In this document: piece by piece, positions 21,458 to 42,194 of the stretch | How positions within the stretch are numbered: position 1 is the first letter of the stretch | Layout of the letters: each line of letters opens with the position of its first letter | Source: Candidatus Caldarchaeales archaeon | GTDB lineage: Archaea; Thermoproteota; Nitrososphaeria_A; Caldarchaeales; Wolframiiraptoraceae | NCBI GenBank assembly: GCA_039630055.1 | Contig: JBCNVN010000001.1 | Coordinates: 160,544 to 224,543 of the forward strand | Direction: 5' to 3' | DNA length: 64,000 bases | Position numbers and translations under genes: made by a program | The notes under the pieces: model-generated | The model's database searches: none | Told to the model about the DNA's origin: nothing | The model's input: the letters and a program-made list of their open reading frames with translations, nothing else

Positions 21458-21471
21458 TCCACTACAGCCTC

Positions 21472-22356: not shown

Positions 22357-22393
22357 CTACATAGTCTTAAAAATTGGATGATAGTAAAAAACA

Positions 22394-22495: not shown

Positions 22496-22514
22496 ATTTA
22501 GATTTGAGGAACTT

Positions 22515-23069: not shown

Positions 23070-23364
23070 GATAGATGTTAAAAAGATTATTAGAGGACAG
23101 TTTTCTTGGAGGACCCTCCCACCAGCCGCAATGGTTTTAGTACCCACATCACTTGAGTATAAGACGTATACTTGGAGGATAGAGAGACCTGAAATAGATC
23201 AATCAAAATGTACGAGATGTTTACTGTGCTGGGTCTATTGTCCAGACATGTCTATAAGAAGACTTAATGATGGGAGGGTAGAGATTTACTATGAATTCTG
23301 TAAAGGATGTGGTATATGCGCTGAGGTATGTCCATCGAAAGCTATAAAGATGGTGGAGGAGTGA
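23044..23364 (+). CDS. porD: 2-oxoacid:ferredoxin oxidoreductase delta subunit (2x[4Fe-4S])
   Basis: Cys motifs CTRCLLCWVYCP and CKGCGICAEVCP. Confidence 0.8.
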   Translation: MMRWRLLSEIDVKKIIRGQFSWRTLPPAAMVLVPTSLEYKTYTWRIERPEIDQSKCTRCLLCWVYCPDMSIRRLNDGRVEIYYEFCKGCGICAEVCPSKAIKMVEE

Positions 23365-23367
23365 GCC

Positions 23368-24561
23368 ATGAGCAAAGTCGAGTATGCTAAAAGAGTGGCT
23401 CTGATGGGGGATGAGGCTGTAGCATATGCAGTTAAACAAGCAGATGTAGATGTTATAGCGGCTTACCCTATAACCCCCCAGACATTAATCGTAGAGAGGC
23501 TTAGCAAGTATGTTGCAGACGGAGAGTTAAATGCTGCCTTCATCCAAGCTGAGAGCGAGCACTCAGCTCTCTCTATCTGTGTAGGTGCTGCACTTGCCGG
23601 GGCTAGAACGTTCACGTCTACAGCAAGTCAGGGTCTCGCATTAATGCATGAGATACTCTTTATCGCCTCCTCTATGAGAGCGCCTATAGTTATGGCCATA
23701 GCCAACAGGGCACTTAACTCTCCACTAAATATTCACTGCGACCACTCAGATATTATGGATGCGAGAGATACTGGATGGGTACATCTGTTTGCAAACAATG
23801 TCCAGCAAGTATATGACCTTACCCTCATAGCCTTCAAGATGAGTGAAGATCAAAACTTGTTGCTTCCTGTATCAGTGAATCTAGACGGATTCATACTAAC
23901 TCATAGTATCGAGCCTCTCGAAGTCTTACCAGATGAAGAAGTTTGTCAGTTCATCCCCCATAGACCTTATCGATACGAGATAGATTTCGAGAAGCCTTTA
24001 GCATATGGGGTTATGGCCTTACCAGATACTTATATGGAGTTTAGGAAGCAGCTCTATGAAGCAATACTAGGAGCTCCAGAAGTATTAGATAGGGTAACTA
24101 GAGAATACTACAAGATCTCTGGGAGAAAATATAATCCTATAGTTTCATACTATACTGAGGATGCAGATGCTGTAGTAGTAGCATTGGGATCAACTGTAGA
24201 CACTCTGAAATATGTGGCTAGAAAGCTTAGAGAGAAGGGTCTCAAGGTTGGTGTACTTGGAATAACTATGTATAGGCCCTTCCCGGAGAGAGAAATCTTG
24301 GAAGCCTTAGAGAATGTAAAATGTTTAGCCATCATGGATAGAGCATATTCTTATGGAGGTGTTGGAGGACCACTATATACAGATATCCTCTCAATGCTTT
24401 ACAAGCATGGGGTTAGAAAGATAGTTGCAGACTTTGTCTATGGACTTGGAGGAAGAGACTTCAAGATTACAGATTCAGAAGAGCTATTTAGAAAGATGAT
24501 GGTAGCGATCGAGCATAATGGATATGATAGAGATATCTACTGGTGGGGGGTGAAAGAATAG
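23368..24561 (+). CDS. porA: 2-oxoacid:ferredoxin oxidoreductase alpha subunit
   Basis: 397 aa. GDEAVAYAVKQADVDVIAAYPITPQT is a typical alpha-subunit N-terminus. Confidence 0.85.
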   Translation: MSKVEYAKRVALMGDEAVAYAVKQADVDVIAAYPITPQTLIVERLSKYVADGELNAAFIQAESEHSALSICVGAALAGARTFTSTASQGLALMHEILFIASSMRAPIVMAIANRALNSPLNIHCDHSDIMDARDTGWVHLFANNVQQVYDLTLIAFKMSEDQNLLLPVSVNLDGFILTHSIEPLEVLPDEEVCQFIPHRPYRYEIDFEKPLAYGVMALPDTYMEFRKQLYEAILGAPEVLDRVTREYYKISGRKYNPIVSYYTEDADAVVVALGSTVDTLKYVARKLREKGLKVGVLGITMYRPFPEREILEALENVKCLAIMDRAYSYGGVGGPLYTDILSMLYKHGVRKIVADFVYGLGGRDFKITDSEELFRKMMVAIEHNGYDRDIYWWGVKE

Positions 24562-24562
24562 T

Positions 24563-25510
24563 ATGACCACAATCGAGAAACATTTCAAGACGATAAGAGA
24601 CCTGCCCGTAGAGGATTATTTCGCTCCTGGTCATAGACTATGTGCAGGATGCGGAGCCTCTCTTGCAGTGAAGCTTGCAATGAAGGCTATAAGAATGCCT
24701 ACAGTTGTAGTTAATGCAACTGGATGCGTAGAGGTTTCTACATCGATGTTTCCATATGTTAGTTGGAGGGTTCCATGGGTTCACATAGCATTCGAGAATA
24801 CTGCAGCGGTTGCAAGCGGAATATCGGAGGGATTAAAGATTCTAAACAAGAAAAGGGGTAAGATGATGCATGACGTCATCGCGATAAGTGGAGATGGTGG
24901 AACATTCGACATCGGCTTACAGGCTCTCTCAGGAGCTTTGGAAAGAGGTCATAAGATGCTCTACATATGCTATGATAACGAAGCCTACATGAATACAGGC
25001 GTCCAGAGGTCTGGGGCAACCCCTATAGGTGCGGCTACTACGACCAGCCCTATCGGACAATTGATCCCCGGTAAACAAGAGAGGAAGAAAGACTTGATAG
25101 GAATAGTTGCGGCTCATAGAATACCTTATGCGGCCACAGCCTCTATCTCTCATCCTCTAGACTTTGTAAACAAGGTTAGGAAAGCTCTAGAGATTGAGGG
25201 GCCGACGTTTATCCATGTTATAACACCGTGCGCCCTAGGTTGGAGGCATCCACCATCGCAGACGATCAAGATCGCTAGACTAGCTGTTGAGACTAGATAT
25301 TTCCCAGTATACGAGGTTGAGGAGGGTAGGGTTAAGATAAACATTAGAGTATCGAGACCTAGACCTCTTGAAGAGTTCTTGGAAGCACAGGGAAGATTCA
25401 AGCATCTCTTCGAACCTCAGAATAGGCATATTCTAGAAAATCTTAAAACTCAGATTGAAGAAAATTGGAATAGGCTTTTAAGGCTAGAAGAGCTAGGTAT
25501 ACGTATCTGA
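24563..25510 (+). CDS. porB: 2-oxoacid:ferredoxin oxidoreductase beta subunit (TPP / Fe-S)
   Basis: Motifs GHRLCAGCGASLA and ISGDGGTFDIGLQALSGA (TPP-binding GDG). Confidence 0.85.
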   Translation: MTTIEKHFKTIRDLPVEDYFAPGHRLCAGCGASLAVKLAMKAIRMPTVVVNATGCVEVSTSMFPYVSWRVPWVHIAFENTAAVASGISEGLKILNKKRGKMMHDVIAISGDGGTFDIGLQALSGALERGHKMLYICYDNEAYMNTGVQRSGATPIGAATTTSPIGQLIPGKQERKKDLIGIVAAHRIPYAATASISHPLDFVNKVRKALEIEGPTFIHVITPCALGWRHPPSQTIKIARLAVETRYFPVYEVEEGRVKINIRVSRPRPLEEFLEAQGRFKHLFEPQNRHILENLKTQIEENWNRLLRLEELGIRI

Positions 25511-25556: not shown

Positions 25557-26537
25557 TTATAGAATGTTGATCCCTGTGATAGCTTGAATCTTAGAGATTA
25601 TCGAACTAGTCAGTTTATCATCTAATCTTGTCCTAATATCATATAGAGATACAAGCATCTCATTTACCCTTCTAACCACCCTCTGAGGATATGGTATAGA
25701 CCTGAACTCTATATACAGTCTCTCCAAATCTTTATATGTTAAGGTTTTACCATAGAGAGCTCTGAGGATCGCTGACAGCTGGTTTAAAGTAGCCCTATAG
25801 CAATTTATATGTGAAGAATGATTGTATAGACAGTTACCACAGTTTGATGCTAAAAGCTCTCTCATAGGACCTCTATTAGTGATCCTTACATGTTTTGCAA
25901 CCTTGACATAGTTATCTTTCTTCAACCTAGACAAAGCTTTGTAGAGTGTACTGACGCTAATCCCTCCTTTAAGCACTCTCCTGAAAAGTTCATCTACAGT
26001 CGATTCTCCATATATACAGAGATAATCTATAATCTTCTGATAGAGTGTTGGTGGAGCTTTAGATAGATATTCTTCTAACTTCTTCTGTAGTAGGTTTAAC
26101 ATCATACTGTACTCTGGGACTGAGTCAAATCCTAGCCTTCTAAAACATGTCTCAACTTGAAGATTAAAATCGTTCATCATAGTAGATGATAAAGAATCAT
26201 AGTCTGTAGACTTCATATAAGAGTTAAGGAGAGACCATAAGTAGTATACGCATTCATCTTTCCATCCACTCCTAACAATCCACGAAAACTTATTTAATGC
26301 ATCTAGTGTAGATAGTTTATCTACAAAGTATATCTCCCTGGTAGCTTTCTTGAAGAAATTCTTGGATGATAGCCTCTCTAAGGCCTCTATACCCCTATTA
26401 TTCATAGCCACCAAGACAGCATCTTGATCGTTTGATCTCTCAACGAGAACAATAAGTGGAGACCTGATATAGTTCTCTTCACTAAATTCGTATGGTTTGA
26501 ATTCTGCTAAGAGGGATAGTAGTTCGACCTCTTTCAC
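25557..26537 (-). CDS. Uncharacterised protein with a winged-helix-like segment and a Cys/His cluster
   Basis: 326 aa. The candidate wHTH is TVDELFRRVLKGGISVSTLYKALSRLKKDNYV, followed by CGNCLYNHSSHINC. The gene lies antisense between the two OFOR operons. Confidence 0.5.
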   Translation of the reverse strand: MKEVELLSLLAEFKPYEFSEENYIRSPLIVLVERSNDQDAVLVAMNNRGIEALERLSSKNFFKKATREIYFVDKLSTLDALNKFSWIVRSGWKDECVYYLWSLLNSYMKSTDYDSLSSTMMNDFNLQVETCFRRLGFDSVPEYSMMLNLLQKKLEEYLSKAPPTLYQKIIDYLCIYGESTVDELFRRVLKGGISVSTLYKALSRLKKDNYVKVAKHVRITNRGPMRELLASNCGNCLYNHSSHINCYRATLNQLSAILRALYGKTLTYKDLERLYIEFRSIPYPQRVVRRVNEMLVSLYDIRTRLDDKLTSSIISKIQAITGINIL

Positions 26538-26626
26538 ATAGAAAATATTGGAAAAAAGCGAATATTAGCTTTTCTTTAAATAAGCCCGAACGATACAATC
26601 TATGTAAAAAGTCTGGGTGATAGCCA

Positions 26627-26911
26627 GTGTCATTAAAGATTATTAGAGAACCGATAAATAAGAATATACAAAAAATACCCCTCGGGATCATAAATATCAT
26701 ACCTGAAAGATGTAAAGAATGCGGTTTCTGTGTAGAGCTCTGCCCTAGGGATGTCCTAAAGGTTGGTGAAGAACGAAATATGAAAGGTTATAGGTGGCCA
26801 AAGATAGCGGATGGAAAAGCCTATGATTGTATCGCTTGTAGAATGTGTGAATGGATATGTCCAGAATTCGCTATATTTGTCAAAGAAGTCGATAGGAGGG
26901 AGTTCAGCTGA
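26627..26911 (+). CDS. korD: 2-oxoacid:ferredoxin oxidoreductase delta/ferredoxin subunit (KOR-type D-A-B-G order)
   Basis: Cys motifs CKECGFCVELCP and CIACRMCEWICP. GTG start. The symbol is assigned from gene order only. Confidence 0.7.
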   Translation: MSLKIIREPINKNIQKIPLGIINIIPERCKECGFCVELCPRDVLKVGEERNMKGYRWPKIADGKAYDCIACRMCEWICPEFAIFVKEVDRREFS

Positions 26912-28056
26912 TGTCCAGCGAGCTTAAGCTCTTAAAGCCGGGGATACACTTTATGATGGGTAATATAGCTTGTGCAGAGGCTGCGTTGATAGCTGGATGC
27001 GGATTTTATGCAGGATATCCAATAACACCCTCCAATGAAATAGCTGAGCATATGAGTAGAAGGATGCCTGAATTGGGAAGACATTTTATACAGATGGAGG
27101 ATGAGATAGCAAGTATAGTAGCAGTTCTCGGCGCTTCTGCAGGAGGGGTGAAGAGTATGACCGCTACATCCGGTCCAGGCTTCTCATTAATGATGGAGAC
27201 GATTGGTTTATCAGCTATGCTCGAGCTCCCATGTGTAATAGTAGATGTTCAGAGAGCGGGGCCGAGCACAGGGATCCCCACCTTTGTAGGTCAAGGAGAT
27301 GTCATGCAGGCTAGATGGGGATCTCATGGAGATTATGAGCTAGTAGTCTTCTCACCATCATCCGTTCAAGAATTCTTCGATCTAACTATTGAAGCATTTA
27401 ATGTATCGGAATGGCTGCGGATACCAGTGATCGTTCTGTCAGATGAGGTCGTAGGTCACATGTACGGTAAACTTGAAGTCCAGCCATACGAAAAGATCAC
27501 AATAATCAATAGAAAGAAGTATGATGGAGCTAAAGAAGATTATCTTCCATACGATTATGAGACACTAGTCCCATACTTTGTAGCTGCTGGGGATGGATAT
27601 AGAATACATATGACTGGCTTGACACATGATGAGAGAGGATATCCATCTCTAGAGATAGAAGACTCTAATAAACTTATAGAGAGACTGGTTATGAAGGTGA
27701 GGAAGAATGCAAGAAACCTATGGAAATACGAGAGCTACTTCATAGATGATGCGGATGTAATCGTTATAACCTTTGGCATAACAGCTAGATCGGCGACAGA
27801 AGCAGTTAAGAGAGCGAGAAGTGAGGGTTTGAAAGTTGGTCTACTCAAACTATTGACGCTGTGGCCTTTCCCAGAAGAACCTGTTAAGACCGCTACCCAG
27901 TATGCGAGGAGAGTTCTCGTAGCCGAGATAAATATGGGTCAGCTAATCCATCCGGTTAAAGAGGTTGCAGAATGTCCAGTAGCAGGAATAAATTATCCAA
28001 TAGGTTACGTTCCACCACCAGAATATATTCTAGACGGTATTAGGGCGGCGGTGTGA
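26911..28056 (+). CDS. korA: 2-oxoacid:ferredoxin oxidoreductase alpha subunit
   Basis: 381 aa with GNIACAEAALIAGCGFYAGYPITPSNE. It overlaps korD by 1 nt. Confidence 0.8.
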   Translation: MSSELKLLKPGIHFMMGNIACAEAALIAGCGFYAGYPITPSNEIAEHMSRRMPELGRHFIQMEDEIASIVAVLGASAGGVKSMTATSGPGFSLMMETIGLSAMLELPCVIVDVQRAGPSTGIPTFVGQGDVMQARWGSHGDYELVVFSPSSVQEFFDLTIEAFNVSEWLRIPVIVLSDEVVGHMYGKLEVQPYEKITIINRKKYDGAKEDYLPYDYETLVPYFVAAGDGYRIHMTGLTHDERGYPSLEIEDSNKLIERLVMKVRKNARNLWKYESYFIDDADVIVITFGITARSATEAVKRARSEGLKVGLLKLLTLWPFPEEPVKTATQYARRVLVAEINMGQLIHPVKEVAECPVAGINYPIGYVPPPEYILDGIRAAV

Positions 28057-28925
28057 TGGGGATGGCTCAGAAACAGATTCTGAGAGAAAATATCGTTGGA
28101 GAAACCCCGAGAGATGACCTTATAAGGAAAGATAGATTTCCTCACATATGGTGTCCAGGATGCTCTTTAGGAACGGTCTTGAAATGCTATGTAGAAGCTA
28201 TCGCATCTTCCAATATACCTGTAGATAAGCATGTGGTGGTATCAGGGATAGGTTGTACTGGTAGGATTGCTGGATACGTTAAACTCGACTCTTATCATGT
28301 TACACATGGAAGACCGATAGCATTTGCTGAAGGTTTAAGGATCGTTAGACCAGACTTAGAAGTAACAGTTATCAGTGGAGACGGAGACCTAGTGACCATA
28401 GGTGGAAACCATTTCATACATGCCATTAGAAGAAATGTCGATATAAACGTCTTCCTCGTCAATAACTTCATATATGGGATGACTGGGAACCAGATGGGAT
28501 CAACCACACCAATAGGAGCGAAGAGTTCTACGAGCCCATATGGTTGCCCAGAACACCCATTCAATCTTCCTCTACTAGTAGCATCCCTAGGAGCGCCATT
28601 TGTCGCAAGATGGACTACCCTTCATGCTAGACAACTTGCAGATGCGATGAAGAGAGCTATGCAGGTTAAAGGATTTGCATTTATAGAGATAATAACCTCA
28701 TGTCCGGTTGGATTCGGATCATATAATGAGTTGAGAGATGGTCTAGACTTCATAAAACTATTCAGAGAGAGCTGCGTAGTAGATCATACAGCAGATCTTA
28801 GCAAAGTTGGAATTACACTAAGACCTGGTGAGCCTATAATTCTTGGAAACTTCGTTGATAGAGAGGTCCCAAGCTATCATGATCTGGAAAGAGAGGTTTT
28901 CAAGAAGGCTGGGTGGTTAAAGTGA
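28053..28925 (+). CDS. korB: 2-oxoacid:ferredoxin oxidoreductase beta subunit (TPP)
   Basis: Motifs WCPGCSLGTV and ISGDGDLVTIGGNHFIHA. It overlaps korA by 4 nt. Confidence 0.8.
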   Translation: MMGMAQKQILRENIVGETPRDDLIRKDRFPHIWCPGCSLGTVLKCYVEAIASSNIPVDKHVVVSGIGCTGRIAGYVKLDSYHVTHGRPIAFAEGLRIVRPDLEVTVISGDGDLVTIGGNHFIHAIRRNVDINVFLVNNFIYGMTGNQMGSTTPIGAKSSTSPYGCPEHPFNLPLLVASLGAPFVARWTTLHARQLADAMKRAMQVKGFAFIEIITSCPVGFGSYNELRDGLDFIKLFRESCVVDHTADLSKVGITLRPGEPIILGNFVDREVPSYHDLEREVFKKAGWLK

Positions 28926-29449
28926 GATGGGATATTAGATGGGCTGGATTCGGTGGTCAAGGAGTTATTAGAGCTGGAGAGCTACTTGGGAGAGCCGCTG
29001 TGAGACAGGGATTGGACTCTGCTATGAGACCTATGTATGGTCCCGAGAAGACGGGTGGATGGTCTAGAGCCGATGTAGTCATCTCAGATCAGCCGATAAT
29101 CTTCCCCCTAATAGTTAGACCCGATATACTCGTAGCTATGTCTCAAGATGGTATGAATAGGGATGGTGCATCCCTCAGAAAAGATGGATACTTACTGATA
29201 GATGGAGAATTGGTGAAGGATATAAGATGTCATCCTTCCAAGATATACTCTGTCGAGGCAACTAGCATAGCAGATAATCTAGGAAGAAGGATAATGGCGA
29301 ACATCGTTATGCTGGGAGCTTTTACCAAGGCATTCAAGATAGTGGACCGAGAGATTCTTCTAAAGACGATAATGGAGACTTTTCCAAAAGCTGCTGAACT
29401 CAATAAGAAAGCCTTCCAGCTAGGTGAAGAAAATTTGAAGGAGGTGTAG
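28913..29449 (+). CDS. korG: 2-oxoacid:ferredoxin oxidoreductase gamma subunit
   Basis: Starts IRWAGFGGQGV. Size is 178 aa. It overlaps korB by 13 nt. Confidence 0.8.
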   Translation: MVKVRWDIRWAGFGGQGVIRAGELLGRAAVRQGLDSAMRPMYGPEKTGGWSRADVVISDQPIIFPLIVRPDILVAMSQDGMNRDGASLRKDGYLLIDGELVKDIRCHPSKIYSVEATSIADNLGRRIMANIVMLGAFTKAFKIVDREILLKTIMETFPKAAELNKKAFQLGEENLKEV

Positions 29450-29455
29450 ACATAG

Positions 29456-32400
29456 TTGCCTGATGAGGTATTGGTTATAGGTGGAGGTATAGCTGGGATA
29501 CAGTGTTCGTTGGACTTGGCCAATGCAGGTGTAAAAGTAGTTCTAGTCGAGAAGTCTCCGACCATCGGTGGGAAGATGGCTATACTAGATAAGAACTTCC
29601 CAACACTAGACTGTTCTATCTGTATCGAGGCACCTAAGATGAGCGAGGTTGGGAAGCATCCCAACATAGAACTACTAACTCTAGCCGAGGTAGTGAATGT
29701 AGAGAGAGATGGTAAAGACTATGTGGTTGAGATATATCAGAAGCCTCGATATGTAACAAGCGAATGTAGTAGATGTGGTCTCTGCATAGATGCATGTCCC
29801 GTACTCTTGAAGAATGAGTTCGATTATGGAATGGCTGTTAGAAAAGCGATATATACCCCTATACCTCAGTCAGAGCCTGGAGCATACGTCATTGATATCG
29901 AGAACTGCTTGAACAAGCCTCCAAACTATCTTCCATGCGATAGATGTATCCAAGTATGTGGCCCGAAATGCATAGACTTCTTCATGAAGCCTAAACTGAT
30001 AAAGAAGAAGGTCAAGGCGATAATCATAGCAACAGGGTTCGAGGTCTTCGATGCAACGAGAATACCTGACTATGCTTACGGACTACATCCAGATGTATTA
30101 ACCTCTATCGAGTATGAAAGACTTCTACAATCGACCGGTCCAAGCGGAGGAGAGATAGTCAAACCTAGTAATGGAAAACATCCTGAGAATATACTATTCA
30201 TACTCTGTGTTGGTTCGAGAGATCCTAGATATAACAGATATTGTTCAAGGTTCTGCTGTATGTATACTATAAAAGAGGCGGTCCAGACGGTGGAACATGG
30301 AATAAAGAATGTAGACATACTCTACATGGATATCCGAGCATATGGTAAAGGGTTTGATGGATTCTATAAGAGGGCTAAAGAAGAGGGTGTAAGATTCATA
30401 AAAGGGAGGGCTGGAAGAGTAATACCGGATGGAGAGAAGCTGAAGGTAAGATTTGAAAATATTGCTGATGGAAGGATGGAGGAGAAAGATTATGATATGA
30501 TTGTTCTAGCAGTAGCTTCAGAGCCTCCGCCAGACCTAGCCAAATTGGCGAAAATACTAGGTATAGAGTTGGATGAAGATGGCTTTGTCAAGACTACACC
30601 TATAAATGGAAAGATGGTGGCCACAAGCCGGGAAGGGATCTTCGTCTGTGGAGGAGCCTCAGGCCCCAAAGACATCGCAGATAGTGTTACAGAAGCGGGA
30701 GCAGCAGCCTCTGCAGCACTTGAATATATAAGAGAGAAGAGCTGGCCCTCGGAGGAGTTTAAAGAGACCATCCCATCGGAGGGAGAGCCGAGGGTAGGTG
30801 TATTCGTATGCCATTGTGGGTCGAATATCGCAGGGGTAGCAGATGTTAAATTGCTCGCTGAAGAGGCTGGAAAGATCCCTGGCGTAGTCCACTCTGAAGA
30901 TCTTAGATTTGCATGCGCAGGAGTATATACAAAGTACATTGAAGAAGTTATTAAAGAGAAGAAGATAAATAGGCTCGTCGTAGCCGCATGCTCTCCTAAA
31001 ACTCATACAAACGTATTTACTGGAGCTGCGATGAGGGCAGGCTTAAACCCCTACCTATTCGAGATGGCGAATATAAGAAATCTAGATACATGGGTTCATG
31101 CAGCTTATCCGAAGGAGGCAACAGAGAAAGCTCTAGACATGATAAAGATGGCGGTCGCCAAGGCGAAGCTGCTCAAGCCGCTTCACGTCGTCAAGCTTCC
31201 AGTAACTAGAAGAGCATTAGTCGTTGGAGGAGGTGTAGCAGGGATGGCGGCGGCCACCAGCTTGGCTCGTCAAGGTTTCGAAACATACCTTGTAGAAAAA
31301 GAAGATCGGTTGGGAGGACTATTGAGATACTTGGATACCATAGCGCCAGAGAATATTAAGGCAGAAGACCTCCTCAAAGAGATGGAGAGAGAACTATATG
31401 ATTCTGGGGTAAGGGTAATTCTCGGAGCAAAGATAGAGTCTGTCAGCGGATATATTGGAAACTTCTTGGTAAACCTATCTAATGGAGAGAAGCTAGAGGT
31501 TGGGTCGATTATACTGGCTACAGGTGCGAAACCCTATCAACCTCAAGGCCCATTCCAATCAAATGGTGGCCAGATAATTACTTCACTAGACTTAGATGGA
31601 CGGCTCAAGAATGGAGATAACATGGATGCCAAGAACGTTGTCTTCATAGGATGTGTAGGATCTAGATATGATTCAAAAGGCTGCTCTAGATTCTGCTGTC
31701 AAGTAATGATAAAGCAGGCTGTAAAGTTGAGAGAGATTGGAAAGAATGTGTTCATACTATACAAGGATATTAGAACTTATAGTAGGAAGGCGGAAGAATT
31801 ATATGAAAAGGCTAGATCTCTTGGAGTAAGATTCATAAAATATGACCCTGAGAAAAGGCCGGAAGAAGCGGTAAAGATAGAGAATGGATTTGTAACTGTT
31901 AGAGATGAACTACTTGGAGAAGATATCCAGATACCTGCCGACCTAATAGTCTTAAACATAGGCTTAACACCGAACGATGATATAAATCCAATAGTAGAAC
32001 AGTTGAAGATAGCGAGAGATGAGGCAGGTTTCCTACTCGAACTCCATCCGAAGCTGGGTCCAGTAGAATCTATGGTGGGAGGAGTATTCTTGGCGGGAAC
32101 AGCTCAAAACCCCAAAGATGTAAGGGAAGCGATCACTCAAGGTCTAGCCGCTGCAGCCAAAGCATCCGCACTACTCGCTAAAGATACTATCGATAAGGAG
32201 CCTCTAATGCCCAGGATCAACTATGATAAATGTACCTACTGTCAAAGATGTGTCCAAGTATGCACCTTCTCTGCTTTAAGAGGAGAGTTAAGAAAGAGTC
32301 TCGAGCTTATCAGTGCCCTCTGTCAAGGTTGTGGATGCTGCTCAGCTGAATGTATGGTTGGAGCGATAGAGGCTCCAGGATTTACAGATGAACAGATCAT

Positions 32401-32863
32401 TGCTCAGATAGATGCAGCTCTAGAAGATAAACCTTATGAGAAAGCTATAGTGTTCGCATGTAACTGGTGCTCTTATGCGGGAGCAGACCAAGCAGGTATA
32501 GAGAAGCTCCAGTATCCTCCAAGCTCTAGAGTCATCAGGACTATGTGCTCTGCCAGGATCTCACAGAAATTCATATTGAGAGCATTCGAGAAGGGTGCGG
32601 CAGTGGTAATGGTTACGGGATGCTGGCCCCAAGACTGCCACTATAATTACGCCAACCTCAATACCGAGAAGAGGTTTAGGCAGTGGAGAAAGATGCTTGA
32701 GGCGAGAGGCATAAACCCTGAGAGACTGATACTCCACTGGAACAGTGCAGCCGAGAGCAAGAGGTGGGCGGCGAAGATGAAGGAGGTTGATGAGCTGATA
32801 AGAAAGATTCCGAGAGAAGAGATTATCGAGACAATCCAGAAGATTGGAGGTGTAAAGAAGTGA
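29456..32863 (+). CDS. Giant HdrA-family flavoprotein: two FAD modules, an HdrA N-domain, a 2x[4Fe-4S] ferredoxin domain and a C-terminal MvhD domain
   Basis: 1135 aa. GGGIAG lies at aa 9-14, followed by LDCSIC and inserted Cys motifs (CSRCGLCIDACP, CDRCIQVC). The HdrA N-domain is VFVCHCGSNI...AACSPKTH...ANIRN (aa about 446-550). A second GGGVAG lies at aa 591-596. CVGSR...CSRFCC is present in both modules. The ferredoxin domain is CTYCQRCVQVC / CQGCGCCSAEC. The MvhD domain is FACNWCSYAGAD...TGCWPQDCHY. Confidence 0.8.
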   Translation: MPDEVLVIGGGIAGIQCSLDLANAGVKVVLVEKSPTIGGKMAILDKNFPTLDCSICIEAPKMSEVGKHPNIELLTLAEVVNVERDGKDYVVEIYQKPRYVTSECSRCGLCIDACPVLLKNEFDYGMAVRKAIYTPIPQSEPGAYVIDIENCLNKPPNYLPCDRCIQVCGPKCIDFFMKPKLIKKKVKAIIIATGFEVFDATRIPDYAYGLHPDVLTSIEYERLLQSTGPSGGEIVKPSNGKHPENILFILCVGSRDPRYNRYCSRFCCMYTIKEAVQTVEHGIKNVDILYMDIRAYGKGFDGFYKRAKEEGVRFIKGRAGRVIPDGEKLKVRFENIADGRMEEKDYDMIVLAVASEPPPDLAKLAKILGIELDEDGFVKTTPINGKMVATSREGIFVCGGASGPKDIADSVTEAGAAASAALEYIREKSWPSEEFKETIPSEGEPRVGVFVCHCGSNIAGVADVKLLAEEAGKIPGVVHSEDLRFACAGVYTKYIEEVIKEKKINRLVVAACSPKTHTNVFTGAAMRAGLNPYLFEMANIRNLDTWVHAAYPKEATEKALDMIKMAVAKAKLLKPLHVVKLPVTRRALVVGGGVAGMAAATSLARQGFETYLVEKEDRLGGLLRYLDTIAPENIKAEDLLKEMERELYDSGVRVILGAKIESVSGYIGNFLVNLSNGEKLEVGSIILATGAKPYQPQGPFQSNGGQIITSLDLDGRLKNGDNMDAKNVVFIGCVGSRYDSKGCSRFCCQVMIKQAVKLREIGKNVFILYKDIRTYSRKAEELYEKARSLGVRFIKYDPEKRPEEAVKIENGFVTVRDELLGEDIQIPADLIVLNIGLTPNDDINPIVEQLKIARDEAGFLLELHPKLGPVESMVGGVFLAGTAQNPKDVREAITQGLAAAAKASALLAKDTIDKEPLMPRINYDKCTYCQRCVQVCTFSALRGELRKSLELISALCQGCGCCSAECMVGAIEAPGFTDEQIIAQIDAALEDKPYEKAIVFACNWCSYAGADQAGIEKLQYPPSSRVIRTMCSARISQKFILRAFEKGAAVVMVTGCWPQDCHYNYANLNTEKRFRQWRKMLEARGINPERLILHWNSAAESKRWAAKMKEVDELIRKIPREEIIETIQKIGGVKK

Positions 32864-34005
32864 GCAAGACTGTAATGGTAAACCTGGAGTTTATGGAGAA
32901 ACTTTCACAACTAACAGCAAATACATCTAATTATTGTTATCAATGTGGAACATGTACCGCCTCATGTCCATTCAATATTCTTAAGCCTGACACGATAAAT
33001 CCTAGAAAGATAGTAAGGAGAGCTCTTCTCGGAGTACAGTATGATGATGGAAGCCTTTGGCTCTGCTCTACATGTGGATTATGTGAAGCTAAATGTCCAT
33101 GGAGTATAAGGATACCTGAAGTAGTTAGAGCCTTCAGACAGCTTGCGGTAGAGAAAAGAAAGATACCTCAGAAACTAGAAGAGACACTCTGGATGATATA
33201 TGAAGATGGAACAGCCTTCCCAGGCTCTAGTGTTGAGAGAGCTTCATGGATTGAGGGGATGAAGATCAAGGATGCCCTAAAAGAGAAGGTTAAGGTCCTA
33301 CTATATGTGGGATGCTTAACATCATTCGATAAGAGACTGCAGAAGATTGCAAAGTCTCTAGCAGCCGTACTAGCTAAAGCAGAAGTAGATTTTGGAATAC
33401 TAGGTAGAGAGGAGAGATGCTGTGGAGATGTAGTATACAATATTGGAGAAGAAGCTTTCCTAGAAGAACTGGCCACCCAAAATATTGAGAGATTTAACAG
33501 AACAGGTGCAGAGAGCATCATTACAATCTCACCCCACTCTGCCCACATGTTTAAGAAGATATATCCAAGATATGGATTAAAAATCCCTGCAATGCATTAT
33601 ATCGAGTTTCTAGCAGACCTTATCGAGAGAGATAAGATAAGGTTGGAGAAGCCTGTAAACGGCGTGGTAACAGTACATGATCCATGCTATCTTGGAAGAT
33701 ATCTGAAGTTATATGAAGAGCCGAGGAAGATGCTCTCAAACATACCGGGTCTAAAAATCGTTGAGATGAAGGATAACAGGGAGAATACGATATGCTGTGG
33801 AAGTGGAGGTGGAAGACACTTCCTCGAGACCCATGAAGAGAGGCTCAGCCATTACAGGATAGCGCAGGCGGCTGAAACAGAGGCTAAGACCATCGTAGCC
33901 CCATGCCCCTTCTGCATACAGAACTTTGAAGACAGCATAAAGATAAAGAGACTAGATATGAATGTTAGAGACGTAGTAGAGCTTATCAACCTCTCTGTAA
34001 GTTAA
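32860..34005 (+). CDS. HdrC/HdrB-type fusion (HdrD/DsrK-like) Fe-S protein with two CCG domains, the first lacking its terminal CxxC
   Basis: The N-terminal 2x[4Fe-4S] motifs are CYQCGTCTASCP and CSTCGLCEAKCP. CCG domain 1 is VGC-x34-CCG-x34-SPHS. CCG domain 2 is PCYLG...ICCGSGGG...PCPFC. Confidence 0.75.
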   Translation: MSKTVMVNLEFMEKLSQLTANTSNYCYQCGTCTASCPFNILKPDTINPRKIVRRALLGVQYDDGSLWLCSTCGLCEAKCPWSIRIPEVVRAFRQLAVEKRKIPQKLEETLWMIYEDGTAFPGSSVERASWIEGMKIKDALKEKVKVLLYVGCLTSFDKRLQKIAKSLAAVLAKAEVDFGILGREERCCGDVVYNIGEEAFLEELATQNIERFNRTGAESIITISPHSAHMFKKIYPRYGLKIPAMHYIEFLADLIERDKIRLEKPVNGVVTVHDPCYLGRYLKLYEEPRKMLSNIPGLKIVEMKDNRENTICCGSGGGRHFLETHEERLSHYRIAQAAETEAKTIVAPCPFCIQNFEDSIKIKRLDMNVRDVVELINLSVS

Positions 34006-34014
34006 GATATAGAG

Positions 34015-34992
34015 ATGATTGGAGATTATTATAGTGGAATATGGGTATTTTTAGAAAGGCGTAGAGACCAGATAGCCGAGCCATCCCTTGAAGTATTGGG
34101 AAAAGCACGACAGCTAGCCGATAAGCATAGAGATGAACTAGTAGGGTTGATAGCTGGCTCTCATAATCTAGATGGTCTCGGCGAACAAGCAATACAGTAT
34201 GGAGCCGACAAGGTCTACATAATCGAAGACCCACTACTAGAAGAGTACTCAACTATTCCATTTGCAGAAGCATTATCGAGAACCATCACTAGATATAAGC
34301 CGAATATACTACTTTATCCAGCTACCAGGAATGGTAGAGATCTAGCAGGAAGAATATCTGCAAAGCTCAATCTCGGACTGTCAGCCAACACCGTATGGCT
34401 AGACATCTTAGAGGATGGATCTCTATTAGCCGGGGTCCCCGGGTTCGGAGGCTCGATAATGGCGGTAACAAAATGTTTAACGAGACCTCAGATGGCCACG
34501 GTGAGACCTGGAGCATTCCCGAAACCCCGTCCAGACTCATCTAGAAAAGGTATAATTGAAAGAGTAGATGTAGGTAAGCTTCCAGAACCTAGAACCGTTG
34601 TAATAGAGAGGATGACTTTTGAGGTTGAAGATATAAGCAAAGCTGAGATGATAGTTGTTGCTGGCGCAGGCGTTAGAGATAGGGTCGAGATGGTTAAGGA
34701 GCTTGCTGAAGAACTGGGATGGGCATTTGGAGCATCTAGACCCCTCTCAGATGAAGGCCTCGTTCCTAGAGATATCTTTATCGGGGCGACTGGAAAGGTG
34801 GTCAGACCTAAGATCGCATTGATAATAGGTGTTAGCGGTGCAGCTCACTTCATCTCAGGGATAGCTGAAGCAGAGAAGATAATCTCGATAAACATCGACC
34901 CGGAGGCACCTATACACAGCTACTCAGACTACTCGATAGTTGGAGATGGATACAAGATAGTTCCAAAACTCTTAGAGAAGCTAAGGATGTGA
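34015..34992 (+). CDS. etfA: Electron transfer flavoprotein alpha subunit
   Basis: The C-terminal FAD domain is AFGASRPLSDEGLVPRDIFIGATGKVVRPKIALIIGVSGAAHFISG...YSIVGD. Confidence 0.85.
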   Translation: MIGDYYSGIWVFLERRRDQIAEPSLEVLGKARQLADKHRDELVGLIAGSHNLDGLGEQAIQYGADKVYIIEDPLLEEYSTIPFAEALSRTITRYKPNILLYPATRNGRDLAGRISAKLNLGLSANTVWLDILEDGSLLAGVPGFGGSIMAVTKCLTRPQMATVRPGAFPKPRPDSSRKGIIERVDVGKLPEPRTVVIERMTFEVEDISKAEMIVVAGAGVRDRVEMVKELAEELGWAFGASRPLSDEGLVPRDIFIGATGKVVRPKIALIIGVSGAAHFISGIAEAEKIISINIDPEAPIHSYSDYSIVGDGYKIVPKLLEKLRM

Positions 34993-34998
34993 AGTAAG

Positions 34999-35790
34999 AT
35001 GATGCATGTGATAGTATGTATGAAGATTACTCCAAAATCTGAACAAGTTAAGCTAGACCCATCGACAAAGACGATAATAAGAGAAGGGGTAGAGAATGAG
35101 ATAAACCCTGCAGATAAGAATGCATTAGAAGCCGCCCTACAACTTAAGGATAAACATAATTGTAAGGTAACCGTGCTTGGGATGGGGCCACCGATCTGGG
35201 AACCCTTCATGAAGCTGGCGATCGCTATGGGAGCAGATGATGCAGTTCTAGTATCAGATAAAGCTTTTGCAGGAGCAGATACATTAGCGACTAGTAGAAC
35301 ACTGGCAGAAGCAATAAAGAAGATAGGAGAATATCATATAATATTGTGTGGAGAAGAGTCTAGTGATGCTGGAACAGGTCACGTCCCCCCAAGCATCGCA
35401 GAGTTCCTAAACATACCCCAGATAACCTACGTTAATAGTGTTGAGATAGTTGATGGTAAGATTAGAGCGAAGAGAGTGCTTGAAGGAGCATATGAAGTCC
35501 TAGAATGTGGCCCTCCAGTTCTACTATCTATCGAGTATGGATCTAATACACCGCGATTTCCTGATTTTAGAAGAAAGAGATGGGCGGATAAAGAATTCAA
35601 GCTTAAAGTCTTGAGTATAAAGGATCTACAACTTAACGAGGAGGAGGTAGGGTTGAAGGGAAGCAGAAGTATCGTAGAAGAATTGAGAGAGATGGGTTTG
35701 AAAGAGAGGGCTAGACAGAAGATTACAGGGTCGGAGGATGAGATCGTATCCCAGATACTTGACATCATCAGGCCATACATCAAAAAGTAA
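34999..35790 (+). CDS. etfB: Electron transfer flavoprotein beta subunit
   Basis: Motifs VIVCMKITPKSEQVKLD...EINPADKNALEAALQLKD and CGEESSDAGTGHVPPSIAEFLNIPQITYV. Confidence 0.85.
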   Translation: MMHVIVCMKITPKSEQVKLDPSTKTIIREGVENEINPADKNALEAALQLKDKHNCKVTVLGMGPPIWEPFMKLAIAMGADDAVLVSDKAFAGADTLATSRTLAEAIKKIGEYHIILCGEESSDAGTGHVPPSIAEFLNIPQITYVNSVEIVDGKIRAKRVLEGAYEVLECGPPVLLSIEYGSNTPRFPDFRRKRWADKEFKLKVLSIKDLQLNEEEVGLKGSRSIVEELREMGLKERARQKITGSEDEIVSQILDIIRPYIKK

Positions 35791-42179: not shown

Positions 42180-42194
42180 TAGCTTTTATGGAAT

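Follow-up and report, generated by a model that had tools for sequence, protein, structure and literature searches.

A conserved eight-gene OFOR–HdrA–Etf cassette as a candidate flavin-based electron-bifurcating or -confurcating complex

A hot-spring archaeon carries eight tightly packed genes whose products seem to make up a single large, uncharacterised redox machine, in which a 2-oxoacid oxidoreductase is joined to two energy-coupling flavoprotein modules. The cassette is found with hardly any change in 80 or more species of archaea and bacteria. Its most likely function is that of a flavin-based bifurcating or confurcating complex that links 2-oxoacid/acyl-CoA, NAD(H) and probably ferredoxin, with the stoichiometry being inferred. 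That the eight proteins form one self-contained soluble redox complex on the Hdr/BamDEF blueprint, comprising an OFOR, HdrA, a CCG-protein wire and EtfAB, we regard as an even bet (roughly 50%). The proposal rests on observed gene content, cofactor ligands, conservation and homologies. An earlier note on this DNA had suggested a candidate uncharacterised bifurcating or confurcating module of HdrA-type, Etf-type and OFOR components, and domain content, synteny and the lack of any description in the literature searched all support that suggestion.

The window, meaning the whole 64,000-nucleotide stretch analysed, contains the cassette as eight plus-strand ORFs spanning 9.2 kb (26627–35790, ORF positions checked), preceded by a divergent gene:

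25557..26537, minus strand: divergent ORF, 326 aa, unknown function
26543..26582, plus strand: putative promoter/operator in the divergent intergenic region before korD, function inferred
26627..26911, plus strand: korD, OFOR delta subunit, 94 aa, 2x[4Fe-4S] ferredoxin-like
26911..28056, plus strand: korA, OFOR alpha subunit, KGOR/OGOR type
28053..28925, plus strand: korB, OFOR beta subunit, TPP-binding
28913..29449, plus strand: korG, OFOR gamma subunit
29456..32863, plus strand: HdrA pseudo-dimer + MvhD fusion, 1135 aa
32860..34005, plus strand: Fer4 + 2xCCG protein, BamD/EtfD-like, soluble, 381 aa
34015..34992, plus strand: etfA, Etf alpha (large) subunit, 325 aa
34999..35790, plus strand: etfB, Etf beta (small) subunit, 263 aa, cassette-specific subfamily

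Junction spacings from korD to etfB are −1, −4, −13, +6, −4, +9 and +6 nt. The earlier coordinates, strand and spacings were matched exactly, and every domain assignment made with them was borne out by Pfam and NCBIfam scans, the Pfam order being Fer4; POR_N+PFOR_II; TPP_enzyme_C; POR; 2x FAD/Pyr_redox_2+Fer4+FlpD(MvhD); Fer4+2xCCG; ETF+ETF_alpha; ETF. ORF starts are the first possible start codons and are unverified; those of korB and korG are shifted by 3 codons in the gene calls of the nearest relative, still without a real gap. A TATA-like box, TTTAAATA, lies at 26575–26582, 52 nt 5′ of korD, and no other TTTAWAWA match occurs in the 80 nt upstream of any cluster gene. It is preceded by two AAATATT(G/A)GA-like elements (26543–26552 and 26560–26569), a GGTGA ribosome-binding site stands before korD at 26616–26620, and alignment revealed that the intergenic elements upstream of korD are kept in five Ca. 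Geocrenenecus loci. A sequence scan detected no TATA-like box or oligo-T tract inside the 9.2 kb and no terminator-like signal after etfB. The sequence is compatible with a single transcription unit for the eight genes, which has not been shown.

The host is a Caldarchaeales/Aigarchaeota archaeon resembling Ca. Geocrenenecus, so the neighbourhood search was not to be restricted to Thermoprotei. Wherever the contig was long enough to judge, identical order and strand were observed in essentially all 80 related loci, with median spacings of −4 to +3 nt across all seven junctions; since about 80 loci share this order and strand with such tight junctions, the arrangement lies far beyond chance. 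Carriers amount to at least 80 species in about eight phyla, including archaeal Thermoproteota (Aigarchaeota, Bathyarchaeota) and Thermoplasmatota as well as bacterial Chloroflexota, Elusimicrobiota, Planctomycetota, Methylomirabilota, Acidobacteriota and Armatimonadota. A lack of conserved synteny had been named beforehand as refuting the proposal, and synteny proved near-perfect across both domains. The cassette behaves as a unit and is not a local oddity. No recurrent flanking family occurs in more than 8 of the 80 loci, which argues that a further dedicated partner is absent. Carriers include strict anaerobes, and the cassette also occurs beside N2O-reductase genes; consequently no single physiological role is obvious.

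Conservation of gene order does not by itself demonstrate a complex. The cassette might instead be a co-regulated operon in which a free-standing OFOR reduces ferredoxin, while HdrA-MvhD, the CCG protein and EtfAB constitute a separate soluble, Etf-linked ferredoxin:NAD(H) oxidoreductase that recycles the ferredoxin so made. The OFOR subunits lack unusual domains, a search for Rosetta-stone fusions between modules found none, an assembly of all eight proteins has no experiment or structure behind it, and coupling by a diffusible carrier would likewise favour gene co-transfer and co-evolution. Against this, order is fixed over two domains and about eight phyla, the korG and hdrA frames overlap or abut, and pairwise distances correlate among all eight families (rho 0.70–0.90; Mantel 0/999), with OFOR genes co-varying with Hdr/Etf genes as tightly as the latter do among themselves. 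Moreover, taking the OFOR away would leave only ferredoxin and NAD to an HdrA-type enzyme, which requires three redox partners. We therefore consider two separate enzymes quite unlikely.

The OFOR is assigned by its family matches to the four-subunit KGOR type. KorA contains POR_N and PFOR_II and scores 512 bits against NF006412 (‘2-oxoacid:acceptor oxidoreductase subunit alpha’; cut-off 411), with P. furiosus 2-keto acid:Fd OR alpha (1e-108) and 2-oxoglutarate synthase alpha (6e-84) as nearest solved relatives, followed by OGOR 6n2n (4e-65), versus only 1e-19 for PFOR. KorB matches TPP_enzyme_C (5.6e-30), its top NCBIfam match being 2-oxoglutarate ferredoxin oxidoreductase subunit beta, below cut-off, and KorG matches Pfam POR (1.8e-35) and TIGR02175 PorC_KorC (93.9 bits; cut-off 81.1). 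KorD, found within the cassette in 69 loci, matches Fer4/Fer4_7, shows two CxxCxxCxxxCP motifs in translation, and has OGOR_delta and OorD as top NCBIfam matches, each below cut-off. The most likely substrates, by inference, are 2-oxoglutarate and succinyl-CoA plus CO2. These subunits are ordinary-looking, and free ferredoxin could be their simple acceptor.

The 1135-aa fusion was mapped by three-segment alignment to HdrA 5odc_A and MvhD 5odc_D:

residues 5–430: flavin core 1, with an inserted 2x[4Fe-4S] ferredoxin domain and bifurcating-FAD hallmarks
residues 444–575: HdrA N-terminal [4Fe-4S] domain
residues 585–900: flavin core 2, lacking both inserted domain and hallmarks
residues 919–990: C-terminal 2x[4Fe-4S] ferredoxin domain
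residues 996–1118: MvhD [2Fe-2S], directly after the C-terminal ferredoxin domain

The protein is internally duplicated (34% identity, E 8e-27). The ligand residues of its cluster and flavin sites (seven [4Fe-4S], one [2Fe-2S] and two FAD) show next to no variation: 31 of the 33 predicted ligand cysteines occur in 78/78 orthologues, and C56 and C747 in 70/78. As judged from the alignment, bifurcating-FAD hallmarks are confined to the N-terminal half, where K273, E221 and DKNFPTLDCSIC are invariant apart from C56; Lys273, Glu221 and the DCSIC pair are not kept in half 2, and position 753 of that half is variable. Lys273, which we take to be the counterpart of HdrA Lys409, corresponds to BamE Lys280 by analogy with the BamE structure. 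The same B-FAD/NB-FAD asymmetry is found in that structure and has been predicted for fused HdrAs in the literature. Of the two potentially bifurcating flavoproteins proposed earlier, the HdrA-type one stands for its N-terminal flavin only, variability at position 753 speaking against the second.

The CCG protein (Pfam Fer4 and two CCG domains) is probably a His-capped, non-catalytic electron wire and Etf docking site, a proposed role based on its residues and on analogy to solved relatives. Its best solved relative is mycobacterial EtfD (9ojn_A, 2.3e-43), whose ‘GGxRMW’ motif and capping His it carries, and it is expected to be soluble because it has no hydrophobic segment. The second, proximal noncubane site (five Cys) and His226 are invariant in the family, and the distal site has been degraded repeatedly, reading S-P-H-S here and S-P-H-C in most members; three Cys remain in the present genome, and Ser replaces the first Cys of CxxC in 69/71. 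In the literature, the equivalent cluster is rendered non-catalytic by the capping His in EtfD, the His fills the substrate pocket in BamD, and BamD of BCRII binds ETF beside these clusters and hands it the high-potential electron. His226 occupies the same position. The cassette's own Etf, encoded directly after the CCG gene, is the likely partner, and this adjacency counts for CCG-to-Etf transfer.

The earlier note had implicitly assumed a true HdrB/HdrD-type disulfide reductase. HdrA bifurcation would then deliver its high-potential electrons to an unidentified thiol/disulfide couple, whose carrier would resemble DsrC, CoM/CoB or a lipoyl protein and be encoded elsewhere, with Etf as NADH input and the OFOR or ferredoxin on the low-potential side. 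All five Cys of the second domain are indeed present, four Cys persist at the first site in most family members, the top NCBIfam match is thiol-oxidising TfrB (3e-47, below cut-off), and NADH-input modules of BCRII join HdrA through MvhD-type adaptors. However, for HdrB to be catalytic both of its noncubane clusters must be open to solvent and have bridging Cys that can be displaced (literature), whereas here the first site is degenerate, the invariant His sits at the capping or pocket-filling position, and HdrB similarity is marginal (7e-6). Lipoate genes (lplA, lpdA, lipA) lie a few kb upstream in the Geocrenenecus lineage and would suit such a carrier, but they are lineage-specific, lpdA is interrupted in the present genome, and no thiol-carrier gene is conserved beside the cassette in 80 genomes. 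Disulfide reduction is thus decidedly improbable, and the unknown terminal disulfide may not exist. A second cluster or thiol chemistry in CCG proteins outside the present lineage is not excluded.

EtfA (ETF and ETF_alpha, no N-terminal ferredoxin domain) is closest to the bifurcating Etfs CarE (3.8e-63), C. difficile (2.7e-61) and T. maritima (1e-56), versus about 1e-26 for human and Paracoccus Etf. Similarly, EtfB (ETF, 2.6e-43) gave 6.5e-48 to 7.8e-36 against bifurcating and 1e-21 to 7e-13 against non-bifurcating Etfs, and the closest structures include LctBC. The Etf is accordingly predicted to be of the bifurcating type, as both subunits score far higher against NADH-using bifurcating Etfs. 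The EtfB motif flagged earlier as the bifurcating site turned out to be a family-specific variant, GEESSDG(A/S)TxQVP, versus the canonical GRQAIDGDTAQVGP, leaving the beta-FAD and NADH site unproven.

In the scheme we favour, iron-sulfur chains would connect the KGOR-type OFOR to an asymmetric fused HdrA dimer, with the N-terminal FAD of that dimer as the bifurcating flavin. The high-potential branch would run through the flavin-domain cluster and the Fer4+CCG wire to the alpha-FAD of EtfAB and on to NAD(H). The most likely place for the OFOR would be the inserted ferredoxin domain, on the low-potential branch, with ferredoxin as mid-potential third partner entering or leaving via MvhD and the C-terminal ferredoxin domain. 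Overall, the complex would reversibly catalyse 2-oxoacid + CoA + NADH + 2 Fd(ox, two-electron) <-> acyl-CoA + CO2 + NAD+ + 2 Fd(red). Spare driving force of 2-oxoacid oxidation would raise NADH electrons to ferredoxin in one direction, and in the other reductive carboxylation would be pulled by ferredoxin oxidation coupled to NAD+ reduction. The 2-oxoglutarate/succinyl-CoA couple lies at about −520 mV and NAD at −320 mV; their mean of about −420 mV falls in the ferredoxin range, suggesting an Nfn-like bifurcation balanced among three partners. Bifurcating-type Etfs normally have a ferredoxin branch of their own, which this simple scheme ignores. Physical assembly, port assignment, substrates and stoichiometry are all inferred.

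The OFOR port on HdrA is undetermined. Fmd, a low-potential CO2-fixing enzyme, is established as tethered directly to the inserted ferredoxin domain of HdrA, and PFOR is mentioned as one more partner that HdrA may have (both from the literature). The OFOR could instead enter via MvhD, as do Mvh, Fdh and BamGHI. If it fed electrons in at the C-terminal ferredoxin domain and MvhD, the complex would effectively be a 2-oxoacid oxidoreductase that reduces NAD+ and stands in for the lipoamide-dependent 2-oxoglutarate dehydrogenase complex. HdrA would send high-potential electrons to the Etf alpha-FAD and low-potential ones to ferredoxin or the Etf beta-FAD, to rejoin at Etf as NADH, perhaps with some net reduction of ferredoxin besides. 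Substrate-oxidising partners enter through MvhD in all characterised HdrA complexes (literature), and MvhD is fused here right after the C-terminal ferredoxin domain. In respiring bacteria that carry the cassette the useful product is NADH, not ferredoxin, and the Etf of the lactate dehydrogenase complex confurcates to NADH. Yet with Etf/NAD+ as high-potential acceptor, the low branch would fall far below the ferredoxin range or energy would be wasted. One flavoprotein subunit suffices for an NAD-dependent OFOR such as NADH-dependent phenylglyoxylate dehydrogenase (NCBIfam names), so there would be no explanation for why 33 cluster ligands and two coupling modules are so strictly conserved. 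To our knowledge, a donor at about −500 mV is also lower than any known HdrA input (−320 to −420 mV). Such an input remains a live but unlikely alternative.

The closest characterised system to the proposed complex is class II benzoyl-CoA reductase (BamDEF + ETF), which has a tungsten module where the cassette has an OFOR. Its BamGHI input module is absent from the cassette, and the cassette Etf differs in being encoded alongside and of bifurcating type. The earlier statement that no characterised complex of this composition was known to its author holds in that no description of an OFOR-HdrA-Etf cassette was found in the searchable literature, but BamDEF + ETF is a close mechanistic precedent.

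Among the ORFs checked, which were all those of roughly 200 aa or more, the window encodes no hydrogenase, FDH, DsrC/TusA, or acyl-CoA or lactate dehydrogenase, as had been claimed; a NuoD-like protein (8498–9718) lacks the NiFe cysteine motifs. The divergent ORF has no Pfam, NCBIfam or informative PDB match, and a helix-turn-helix impression comes only from reading its sequence. It occupies the same position only in Nitrososphaerota-type loci (L001–L007, L009, L010, L024, L025 and L039; 24–58% identity), L024 being titled only ‘bacterium’. It shares the conserved intergenic repeats with the cassette and may, with uncertainty, be a lineage-specific regulator. A second OFOR, of POR/VOR type and absent from the earlier note, lies at 22515–25510.

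Eight plus-strand genes at 26627-35790 encode a four-subunit, KGOR-type 2-oxoacid:ferredoxin oxidoreductase (OFOR), an HdrA protein fused to MvhD, a CCG-domain protein and both subunits of an electron-transferring flavoprotein (Etf). We assign a probability of about 0.3 to the reading that this cassette specifies an unrecognised, widespread electron-bifurcating class, in which an OFOR would for the first time be hard-wired to an HdrA flavin and a dedicated bifurcating-type Etf, reversibly equilibrating 2-oxoglutarate/succinyl-CoA + CO2, NADH and ferredoxin. Gene content, cofactor ligands, homologies and conservation are direct observations. The earlier note had described eight same-strand ORFs with junction spacings of -1, -4, -13, +6, -4, +9 and +6 nt, and both the ORF positions and all of its domain calls were borne out, the latter by Pfam and NCBIfam scans. 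Start codons were taken as the first possible ones, and a 91%-identical relative served as the comparison genome for the window contig. In the gene calls of the closest relative the korB and korG starts are moved by three codons, a shift that still opens no gap.

Gene content of the cassette (26627-35790, + strand, in gene order; Pfam and NCBIfam)
korD, + strand: two [4Fe-4S] sites
korA, + strand: POR_N and PFOR_II (Pfam); NF006412 at 512 bits against a cut-off of 411
korB, + strand: TPP-binding subunit (TPP_enzyme_C)
korG, + strand: POR domain
hdrA, 29456-32863, + strand: 1135 aa; two FAD/Pyr_redox_2 regions, ferredoxin domains and a C-terminal FlpD/MvhD domain
CCG gene, 32860-34005, + strand: 381 aa; Fer4 and two CCG domains
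etfA, + strand: ETF and ETF_alpha
etfB, + strand: ETF

Relatives were sought in one genome per species; 537 stretches encode one, and the best 80 of these were kept. Organisms with the cassette come from hot springs, sediments and groundwater and represent at least 80 species, with up to about 537 candidate genomes. Conserved synteny, which had been proposed as a check, was found by tblastn with the proteins of the window: the order korD-korA-korB-korG-hdrA-CCG-etfA-etfB and its strand are kept in essentially every long-enough locus among the best 80 of 537, with median spacings of -4 to +3 nt at all seven junctions in the related loci. The best 80 of 537 loci include archaea (Aigarchaeota, Bathyarchaeota, Thermoplasmatota) and bacteria of the Chloroflexota (Anaerolineae, Dehalococcoidia, Thermoflexus), Elusimicrobiota, Planctomycetota, Methylomirabilota/Rokubacteria, Acidobacteriota and Armatimonadota. 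Family members bear generic database names, and those on the longest contigs all come from MAGs. Archaeal and bacterial copies of the HdrA protein share 53-60% identity over their full length, which points to horizontal spread of the cassette under strong constraint.

The only clear rearrangement among the best 80 of 537 loci is in L028, from an Elusimicrobia genome, where the kor block (1339-4381) is inverted to G-B-A-D instead of D-A-B-G, so that korD still adjoins hdrA. In a second Elusimicrobia locus, L026, korD lies directly before hdrA at the contig start (1-183), and this locus may share the L028 order. In the Armatimonadota locus L082 the cassette is flanked (1-6078, 18733-23402) by a nitrous-oxide reductase cluster (nosZ-like, NosD, ABC transporter) and a molybdopterin oxidoreductase with an NrfD-type membrane subunit, respiratory neighbours that place the cassette also in organisms with anaerobic respiration.

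No flanking family recurs in more than 8 of the best 80 of 537 loci when the 625 flanking ORFs of at least 100 aa are clustered; genes for a thiol carrier, hydrogenase, acyl-CoA dehydrogenase or ferredoxin, considered as an extra conserved partner, were rejected because none is recurrent in these flanks. This makes the cassette self-contained, and common metabolites are to be expected as its substrates. Among the 56 loci with eight complete genes, pairwise distances correlate between all eight families (Spearman 0.70-0.90; Mantel 0/999). Shared species history adds to this correlation, so that co-inheritance is established and contact is not. No Rosetta-stone fusions between modules were found in the related loci, and the possible fusions, korA-korB in L030 and korB-korG in L032, lie within the OFOR only and may be artefacts. 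One of the main alternatives is a co-regulated operon whose OFOR works through free ferredoxin; that the eight proteins work together is inferred with good support.

Alignment of the HdrA protein to HdrA of the solved Mvh-Hdr complex (5odc) in three segments identified it as a fused, asymmetric HdrA dimer followed by MvhD.

Segments of the HdrA protein (29456-32863, + strand; residue numbers)
Residues 5-377: match HdrA 146-517; flavin core with inserted ferredoxin domain
Residues 444-610: match HdrA 3-169; N-terminal cluster domain and start of the second flavin core
Residues 812-991: match HdrA 470-652; end of the core and C-terminal ferredoxin domain
Residues 996-1118: match MvhD

Between the two flavin cores, identity is 34% (E 8e-27). 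An FAD domain with GxGxxG and an in-domain C..C...CC cluster site is present twice, as GGGIAG with C251/C263/C267/C268 in half 1 and as GGGVAG with C733/C743/C747/C748 in half 2, and the inserted ferredoxin, N-terminal cluster, C-terminal ferredoxin and MvhD [2Fe-2S] domains each occur once, split complementarily over both halves. Both flavin motifs with their cluster sites, and the ligands of the four single domains, are essentially invariant in 78 orthologues: 31 of the 33 predicted ligand cysteines are found in 78/78, with C56 and C747 in 70/78, and the conserved cysteines suffice for seven [4Fe-4S] clusters and one [2Fe-2S]. Half 1 carries the hallmarks of a bifurcating FAD, namely K273, E221 and the DKNFPTLDCSIC motif (D52-C53-S-I-C56), all of them invariant except for C56. 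K273 stands for the lysine near the flavin N5; its counterpart is, by our own count, presumably Lys409 of HdrA (Lys280 in BamE), and the cysteine pair corresponds to the Cys197 region. In contrast, the corresponding lysine position of half 2, 753, is variable (G/Q/N/K) and the cysteine pair is absent, so only one flavin qualifies as bifurcating. Its location in the first HdrA half is inferred with good support; coupled reduction has not been demonstrated. The top NCBIfam match of the protein is the HdrA2 model at 1137 bits, which passes the cut-off of 1100 only because the two halves add up, each alone reaching ~470-500 bits. Fused or tandem HdrAs with complementary domain loss have been read as built-in heterodimers (PMC9012536). 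One orthologue of the fused HdrA, P0063 from a Candidatus Caldarchaeum sp., is 1602 aa long with intein/homing-endonuclease domains (PF14890, PF14528), and an intein appears to have inserted into this highly conserved protein.

For the 381-aa Fer4/CCG protein the earlier note had implied a disulfide reductase, and reduction of an unknown disulfide remains one of the main alternatives. The best solved homologue is mycobacterial EtfD (9ojn_A, 2.3e-43); the match to HdrC is limited to the N-terminal Fer4 part and that to HdrB is marginal (7e-6). In EtfD, the noncubane [4Fe-4S] cluster of the second CCG domain is bound by five cysteines and His583, which stands in for the displaceable bridging cysteine of HdrB and leaves a non-catalytic cluster, and the first CCG domain holds a linear [3Fe-4S] (PMC13083937). 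The alignment to 9ojn_A covers residues 58-370 and keeps all D2, D3 and D4 ligands together with His583: all five cysteines of the second site are retained, H226 aligns with the EtfD histidine, and the motif after the second CC is CCGGGGRMW, as in EtfD. The first site of the window protein reads C152..C187C188..S224-P-H226-S227, with S-P-H-S in place of the EtfD C-P-H-C. Across 71 orthologues the eight Fer4 cysteines, the five second-site cysteines, Pro225 and His226 are invariant; position 224 is serine in 69/71, and position 227 is cysteine in 59/71 (S-P-H-C) and serine in 12/71. Losses of the remaining first-site cysteines occurred in several independent events, in Dehalococcoidia, Elusimicrobia and others. 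Since the first-site pattern is C..CC..S-P-H-(C/S) rather than the C..CT..C-P-H-C of EtfD, a linear [3Fe-4S] is unlikely.

Two complete CCG motifs and two substrate-accessible noncubane clusters, as in canonical HdrABC/HdrDE, are therefore not found in this protein. The degenerate first site, His226 and the lack of a conserved thiol carrier all speak against disulfide reduction. No hydrophobic segment or membrane anchor was found in the 381 residues either (maximum 19-residue hydropathy 1.29), and the protein starts directly with Fer4. It looks like an Etf-docking wire rather than a disulfide reductase, and we infer with good support that it would join the high-potential branch of HdrA to the Etf alpha-FAD.

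Both Etf subunits are closest to the bifurcating Etfs (Bcd, Car, Lct, EtfABCX). EtfB scores 127-167 bits against these and 52-81 bits against non-bifurcating Etfs, and EtfA 184-217 versus about 83-97 bits. EtfA has the alpha-FAD domain and lacks the N-terminal ferredoxin domain of CarE/LctC. The earlier note had flagged an EtfB motif as a test of membership in the bifurcating group 2; the scores place both subunits nearer to that group, and the motif is not canonical. Where bifurcating Etfs have G(R/K)QxxDGDT(A/G)QVGP, the window EtfB has GEESSDAGTGHVPP and the cassette family GEESSDG(A/S)TxQVP, so that the D-G-x-T-x-Q-V-x-P skeleton is kept and the remaining positions differ consistently across the family. 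This family-specific variant marks a distinct subfamily related to group 2, for which sequence does not settle a second FAD or NADH binding.

The OFOR meets the description of a four-subunit KGOR, with POR_N/PFOR_II, TPP_enzyme_C, POR and a 2x[4Fe-4S] delta subunit, and its alpha subunit is nearer KGOR/OGOR than POR/VOR/IOR. The closest solved relatives of KorA are a P. furiosus 2-keto-acid:ferredoxin oxidoreductase (1e-108), 2-oxoglutarate synthase (6e-84) and Magnetococcus OGOR (4e-65), compared with 1e-19 for PFOR, and POR-type models score about 4-fold lower. Specific OGOR equivalog models (NCBIfam) fall below their cut-offs, and 2-oxoglutarate is our best guess as substrate, as yet untested.

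The arrangement most like that of the cassette is the class II benzoyl-CoA reductase (BCRII) of Geobacter metallireducens, Bam[(BC)2DEFGHI]2 (bioRxiv 10.64898/2026.04.10.717634). According to this preprint, BamE fuses two HdrA units, the first core holding a bifurcating FAD (Lys280) and the second a non-bifurcating one, BamF is the MvhD adaptor from the input module, and the inserted ferredoxin domain leads to the low-potential catalytic module. BamD is described there as an HdrBC fusion fed by the flavin-core cluster, with a substrate pocket filled by His, Trp and Tyr, a proximal noncubane cluster bound by five Cys and one His, and a distal cluster disrupted in most homologues; ETF docks on BamD and accepts the high-potential electron. 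The cassette HdrA, MvhD, CCG and Etf match this description feature by feature, judged by sequence pattern against the preprint text without aligned Bam sequences, and both systems combine two flavin-based coupling modules. BamE was absent among the PDB matches of the HdrA protein. In contrast to BCRII, the cassette lacks the tungsten enzyme BamBC and the HydBC-like BamGHI, and the KGOR-type OFOR is the only other enzyme; modules resembling BamBC or BamGHI were found neither in the cassette or the window nor recurrently in the flanks of the best 80 of 537 loci. Furthermore, MvhD is fused to HdrA and without selenocysteine. The cassette carries its own Etf, which by similarity belongs to the bifurcating type; the Bam ETF is a non-bifurcating one that delivers electrons to a membrane ETF:menaquinone oxidoreductase. 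The cassette is also far more widespread, in archaea and many bacterial phyla.

With the methanogen Mvh/Fdh-HdrABC(-Fmd) complexes (5odc, 7bkb; PMC13580544) the cassette shares the HdrA flavin core, the cluster ligands, the FAD Lys/Glu, the inserted and C-terminal ferredoxin domains and MvhD. HdrA is homodimeric there and a fused asymmetric pseudo-dimer here; a single CCG protein, degenerate at its first site and carrying a capping His, takes the place of separate HdrB and HdrC; and the cassette has Etf but no hydrogenase or formate dehydrogenase, and CoM-S-S-CoB chemistry is not expected. In the Hdr-Fmd supercomplexes a low-potential CO2-fixing enzyme is wired to the HdrA low-potential output without free ferredoxin, and PFOR was named by the authors as a conceivable further partner (PMC13580544), a precedent for direct wiring.

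EtfD, an ETF:menaquinone oxidoreductase (9ojn; PMC13083937), has two cubane clusters, a noncubane cluster with five Cys and His, and CCGxGGxRMW, and works beside ETF; the CCG protein differs in lacking a transmembrane/heme b domain and a quinone site, and the far end of the wire would be HdrA rather than the membrane. Bcd-EtfAB (5ol2), CarCDE (6fah), LctBCD (7qh2) and EtfABCX (7koe) are nearest to both Etf subunits, but the partner of the cassette Etf would be the CCG protein with HdrA instead of an acyl-CoA or lactate dehydrogenase or FixCX, and EtfA without N-terminal ferredoxin and EtfB with its changes near the second nucleotide site set it apart. HdrA fused to MvhD is also known from HdrA2B2C2 of Methanosarcina acetivorans and from Moorella HdrABC-MvhD-MetFV, for the Moorella HdrA, too, a fusion of two HdrAs that have lost complementary domains has been reported; their partners are F420H2/heterodisulfide and NADH/methylene-THF, respectively, and OFOR and Etf occur in neither. 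Two Desulfobacterium proteins were ruled out as counterparts, HdrL because of its glutamate-synthase/NADH domain and the Etf-linked HdrF because it is bound to the membrane.

HdrA-type complexes have three ports: an input through the C-terminal ferredoxin and MvhD, a low-potential output through the inserted ferredoxin and a high-potential output through an HdrC-like wire. As OFOR and Etf are the sole dedicated partners and no other gene is conserved, a diffusible carrier is expected as third partner, ferredoxin being the simplest choice. Standard potentials are about -520 mV for 2-oxoglutarate/succinyl-CoA + CO2, -320 mV for NAD and about -420 mV for ferredoxin, which puts ferredoxin in the middle of a balanced three-partner reaction and thereby assigns the OFOR to the low-potential branch, the place taken by Fmd and BamBC. 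This is the reading we adopt. The net reaction would be:

2-oxoacid + CoA + NADH + 2 Fd(ox) <-> acyl-CoA + CO2 + NAD+ + 2 Fd(red)

The third main alternative makes the OFOR the input via MvhD, the port that serves this role in HdrA-type complexes, and the complex a net NAD+-reducing 2-oxoacid oxidoreductase. Support for the OFOR position and for the stoichiometry is weak. We consider the general architecture an even bet or slightly better, and the specific stoichiometry doubtful. Assembly, substrates and direction are all inference, in the absence of transcript, protein or activity data.

A description of the cassette was not found in the searchable literature, in full-text searches on subunit and gene names and on the lineage; some relevant subscription literature was not covered, so a mention is not excluded. 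That literature does hold precedents in BCRII and ANME, and the study of EtfD. Genome papers on Wolframiiraptor and Calditenuaceae mention neither Hdr nor Etf, and those on deep-sea Chloroflexi and Culexarchaeia describe other Hdr clusters. If assembly occurs as inferred, the cassette belongs to the HdrA-based bifurcating supercomplexes, with a new partner set and a wide distribution; its product would be the first such complex with an OFOR and the second, after BCRII, with two coupling modules. If true, many uncultured archaea and bacteria would possess a soluble, membrane-independent means of lifting NADH electrons to the ferredoxin level or, alternatively, of driving reductive carboxylation, which would bear on NADH/ferredoxin balance in anaerobes and microaerophiles and on what drives 2-oxoacid synthases during CO2 fixation. 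Non-methanogenic archaea and bacteria abound in Hdr-like genes, most of these without known function, and a function would follow for a large group of them. The cassette is a clean case, with eight genes, no further conserved partner and essentially invariant cofactor ligands. It would also broaden a very recent result, namely that CCG proteins of the BamD/EtfD type act as docking wires for Etf rather than reducing disulfides, which changes the annotation of 'HdrD-like' genes in metagenomes.

The HdrA protein is most closely related (85-91% identity) to proteins of Aigarchaeota/Caldarchaeales MAGs that bear the name Candidatus Geocrenenecus, a genus of Wolframiiraptoraceae described as strict anaerobes (PMC9246946; PMC12979851). 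Promoter and terminator signals were scored by a simple count of TATA boxes and oligo-T runs. A TATA-like box at 26575-26582, 52 nt upstream of korD, is the only one near any cassette gene start; together with two AAATATT(G/A)GA-like elements in the intergenic region (26538-26626) and a GGTGA site, it is conserved in five Geocrenenecus loci. By this count neither TTTAWAWA nor coding-strand runs of at least 6 T were found inside the 9.2-kb cassette, nor after etfB until 44794. This fits one promoter without internal termination; there is no expression evidence, and the transcript end has not been shown. Plus-strand housekeeping genes follow downstream (thymidylate-kinase-like, LigT, CCA-adding enzyme, RIO-like kinase and 5-FTHF cyclo-ligase).

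Opposite korD lies a divergent ORF (25557-26537, - strand, 326 aa) without Pfam, NCBIfam or informative PDB match. It is kept in place only in Nitrososphaerota-type loci at 24-58% identity (L024 being titled only 'bacterium'), shows by eye a helix-turn-helix-like stretch and a CGNC...C motif, and may be a dedicated cassette regulator, which is unverified. On its other side is a second four-subunit OFOR of POR/VOR type by Pfam (22515-25510, + strand, gamma-delta-alpha-beta), syntenic only in Geocrenenecus loci and found in another position or orientation in L006 and L009. A scan of the window's other large ORFs upheld the reported absence of hydrogenase, formate dehydrogenase, DsrC/TusA and acyl-CoA or lactate dehydrogenase. 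NuoB, NuoC and NuoD homologues stand in a row at 7340-9718 (+ strand), followed by an ATP-synthase C/AC39 subunit gene (10635-11696) and no further nuo genes; we rejected them as a hydrogenase, since NuoD lacks the NiFe cysteines, and they are of the complex-I type.

Two ORFs, at 17042-19444 (- strand, 800 aa) and 61416-62615 (- strand, 399 aa), have no Pfam match at E<=1e-5. A lipoate set on the minus strand (19441-22356) comprises lipoate-protein ligase (19441-20079), dihydrolipoyl dehydrogenase (about 20079-21457) and lipoyl synthase (21472-22356). In the dihydrolipoyl dehydrogenase gene the reading frame is broken by a stop near 20414 and a frameshift near 20150, whereas the closest relative has an uninterrupted orthologue of 462 aa; the gene is here either a pseudogene or the result of a sequencing or assembly error. 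A few kb downstream of the cassette, genes for a PLP-dependent (PALP) enzyme, a D-2-hydroxyacid dehydrogenase and a class-V aminotransferase, followed by an MFS transporter (40746-44275, + strand), may form a small amino-acid/2-oxoacid conversion cluster.
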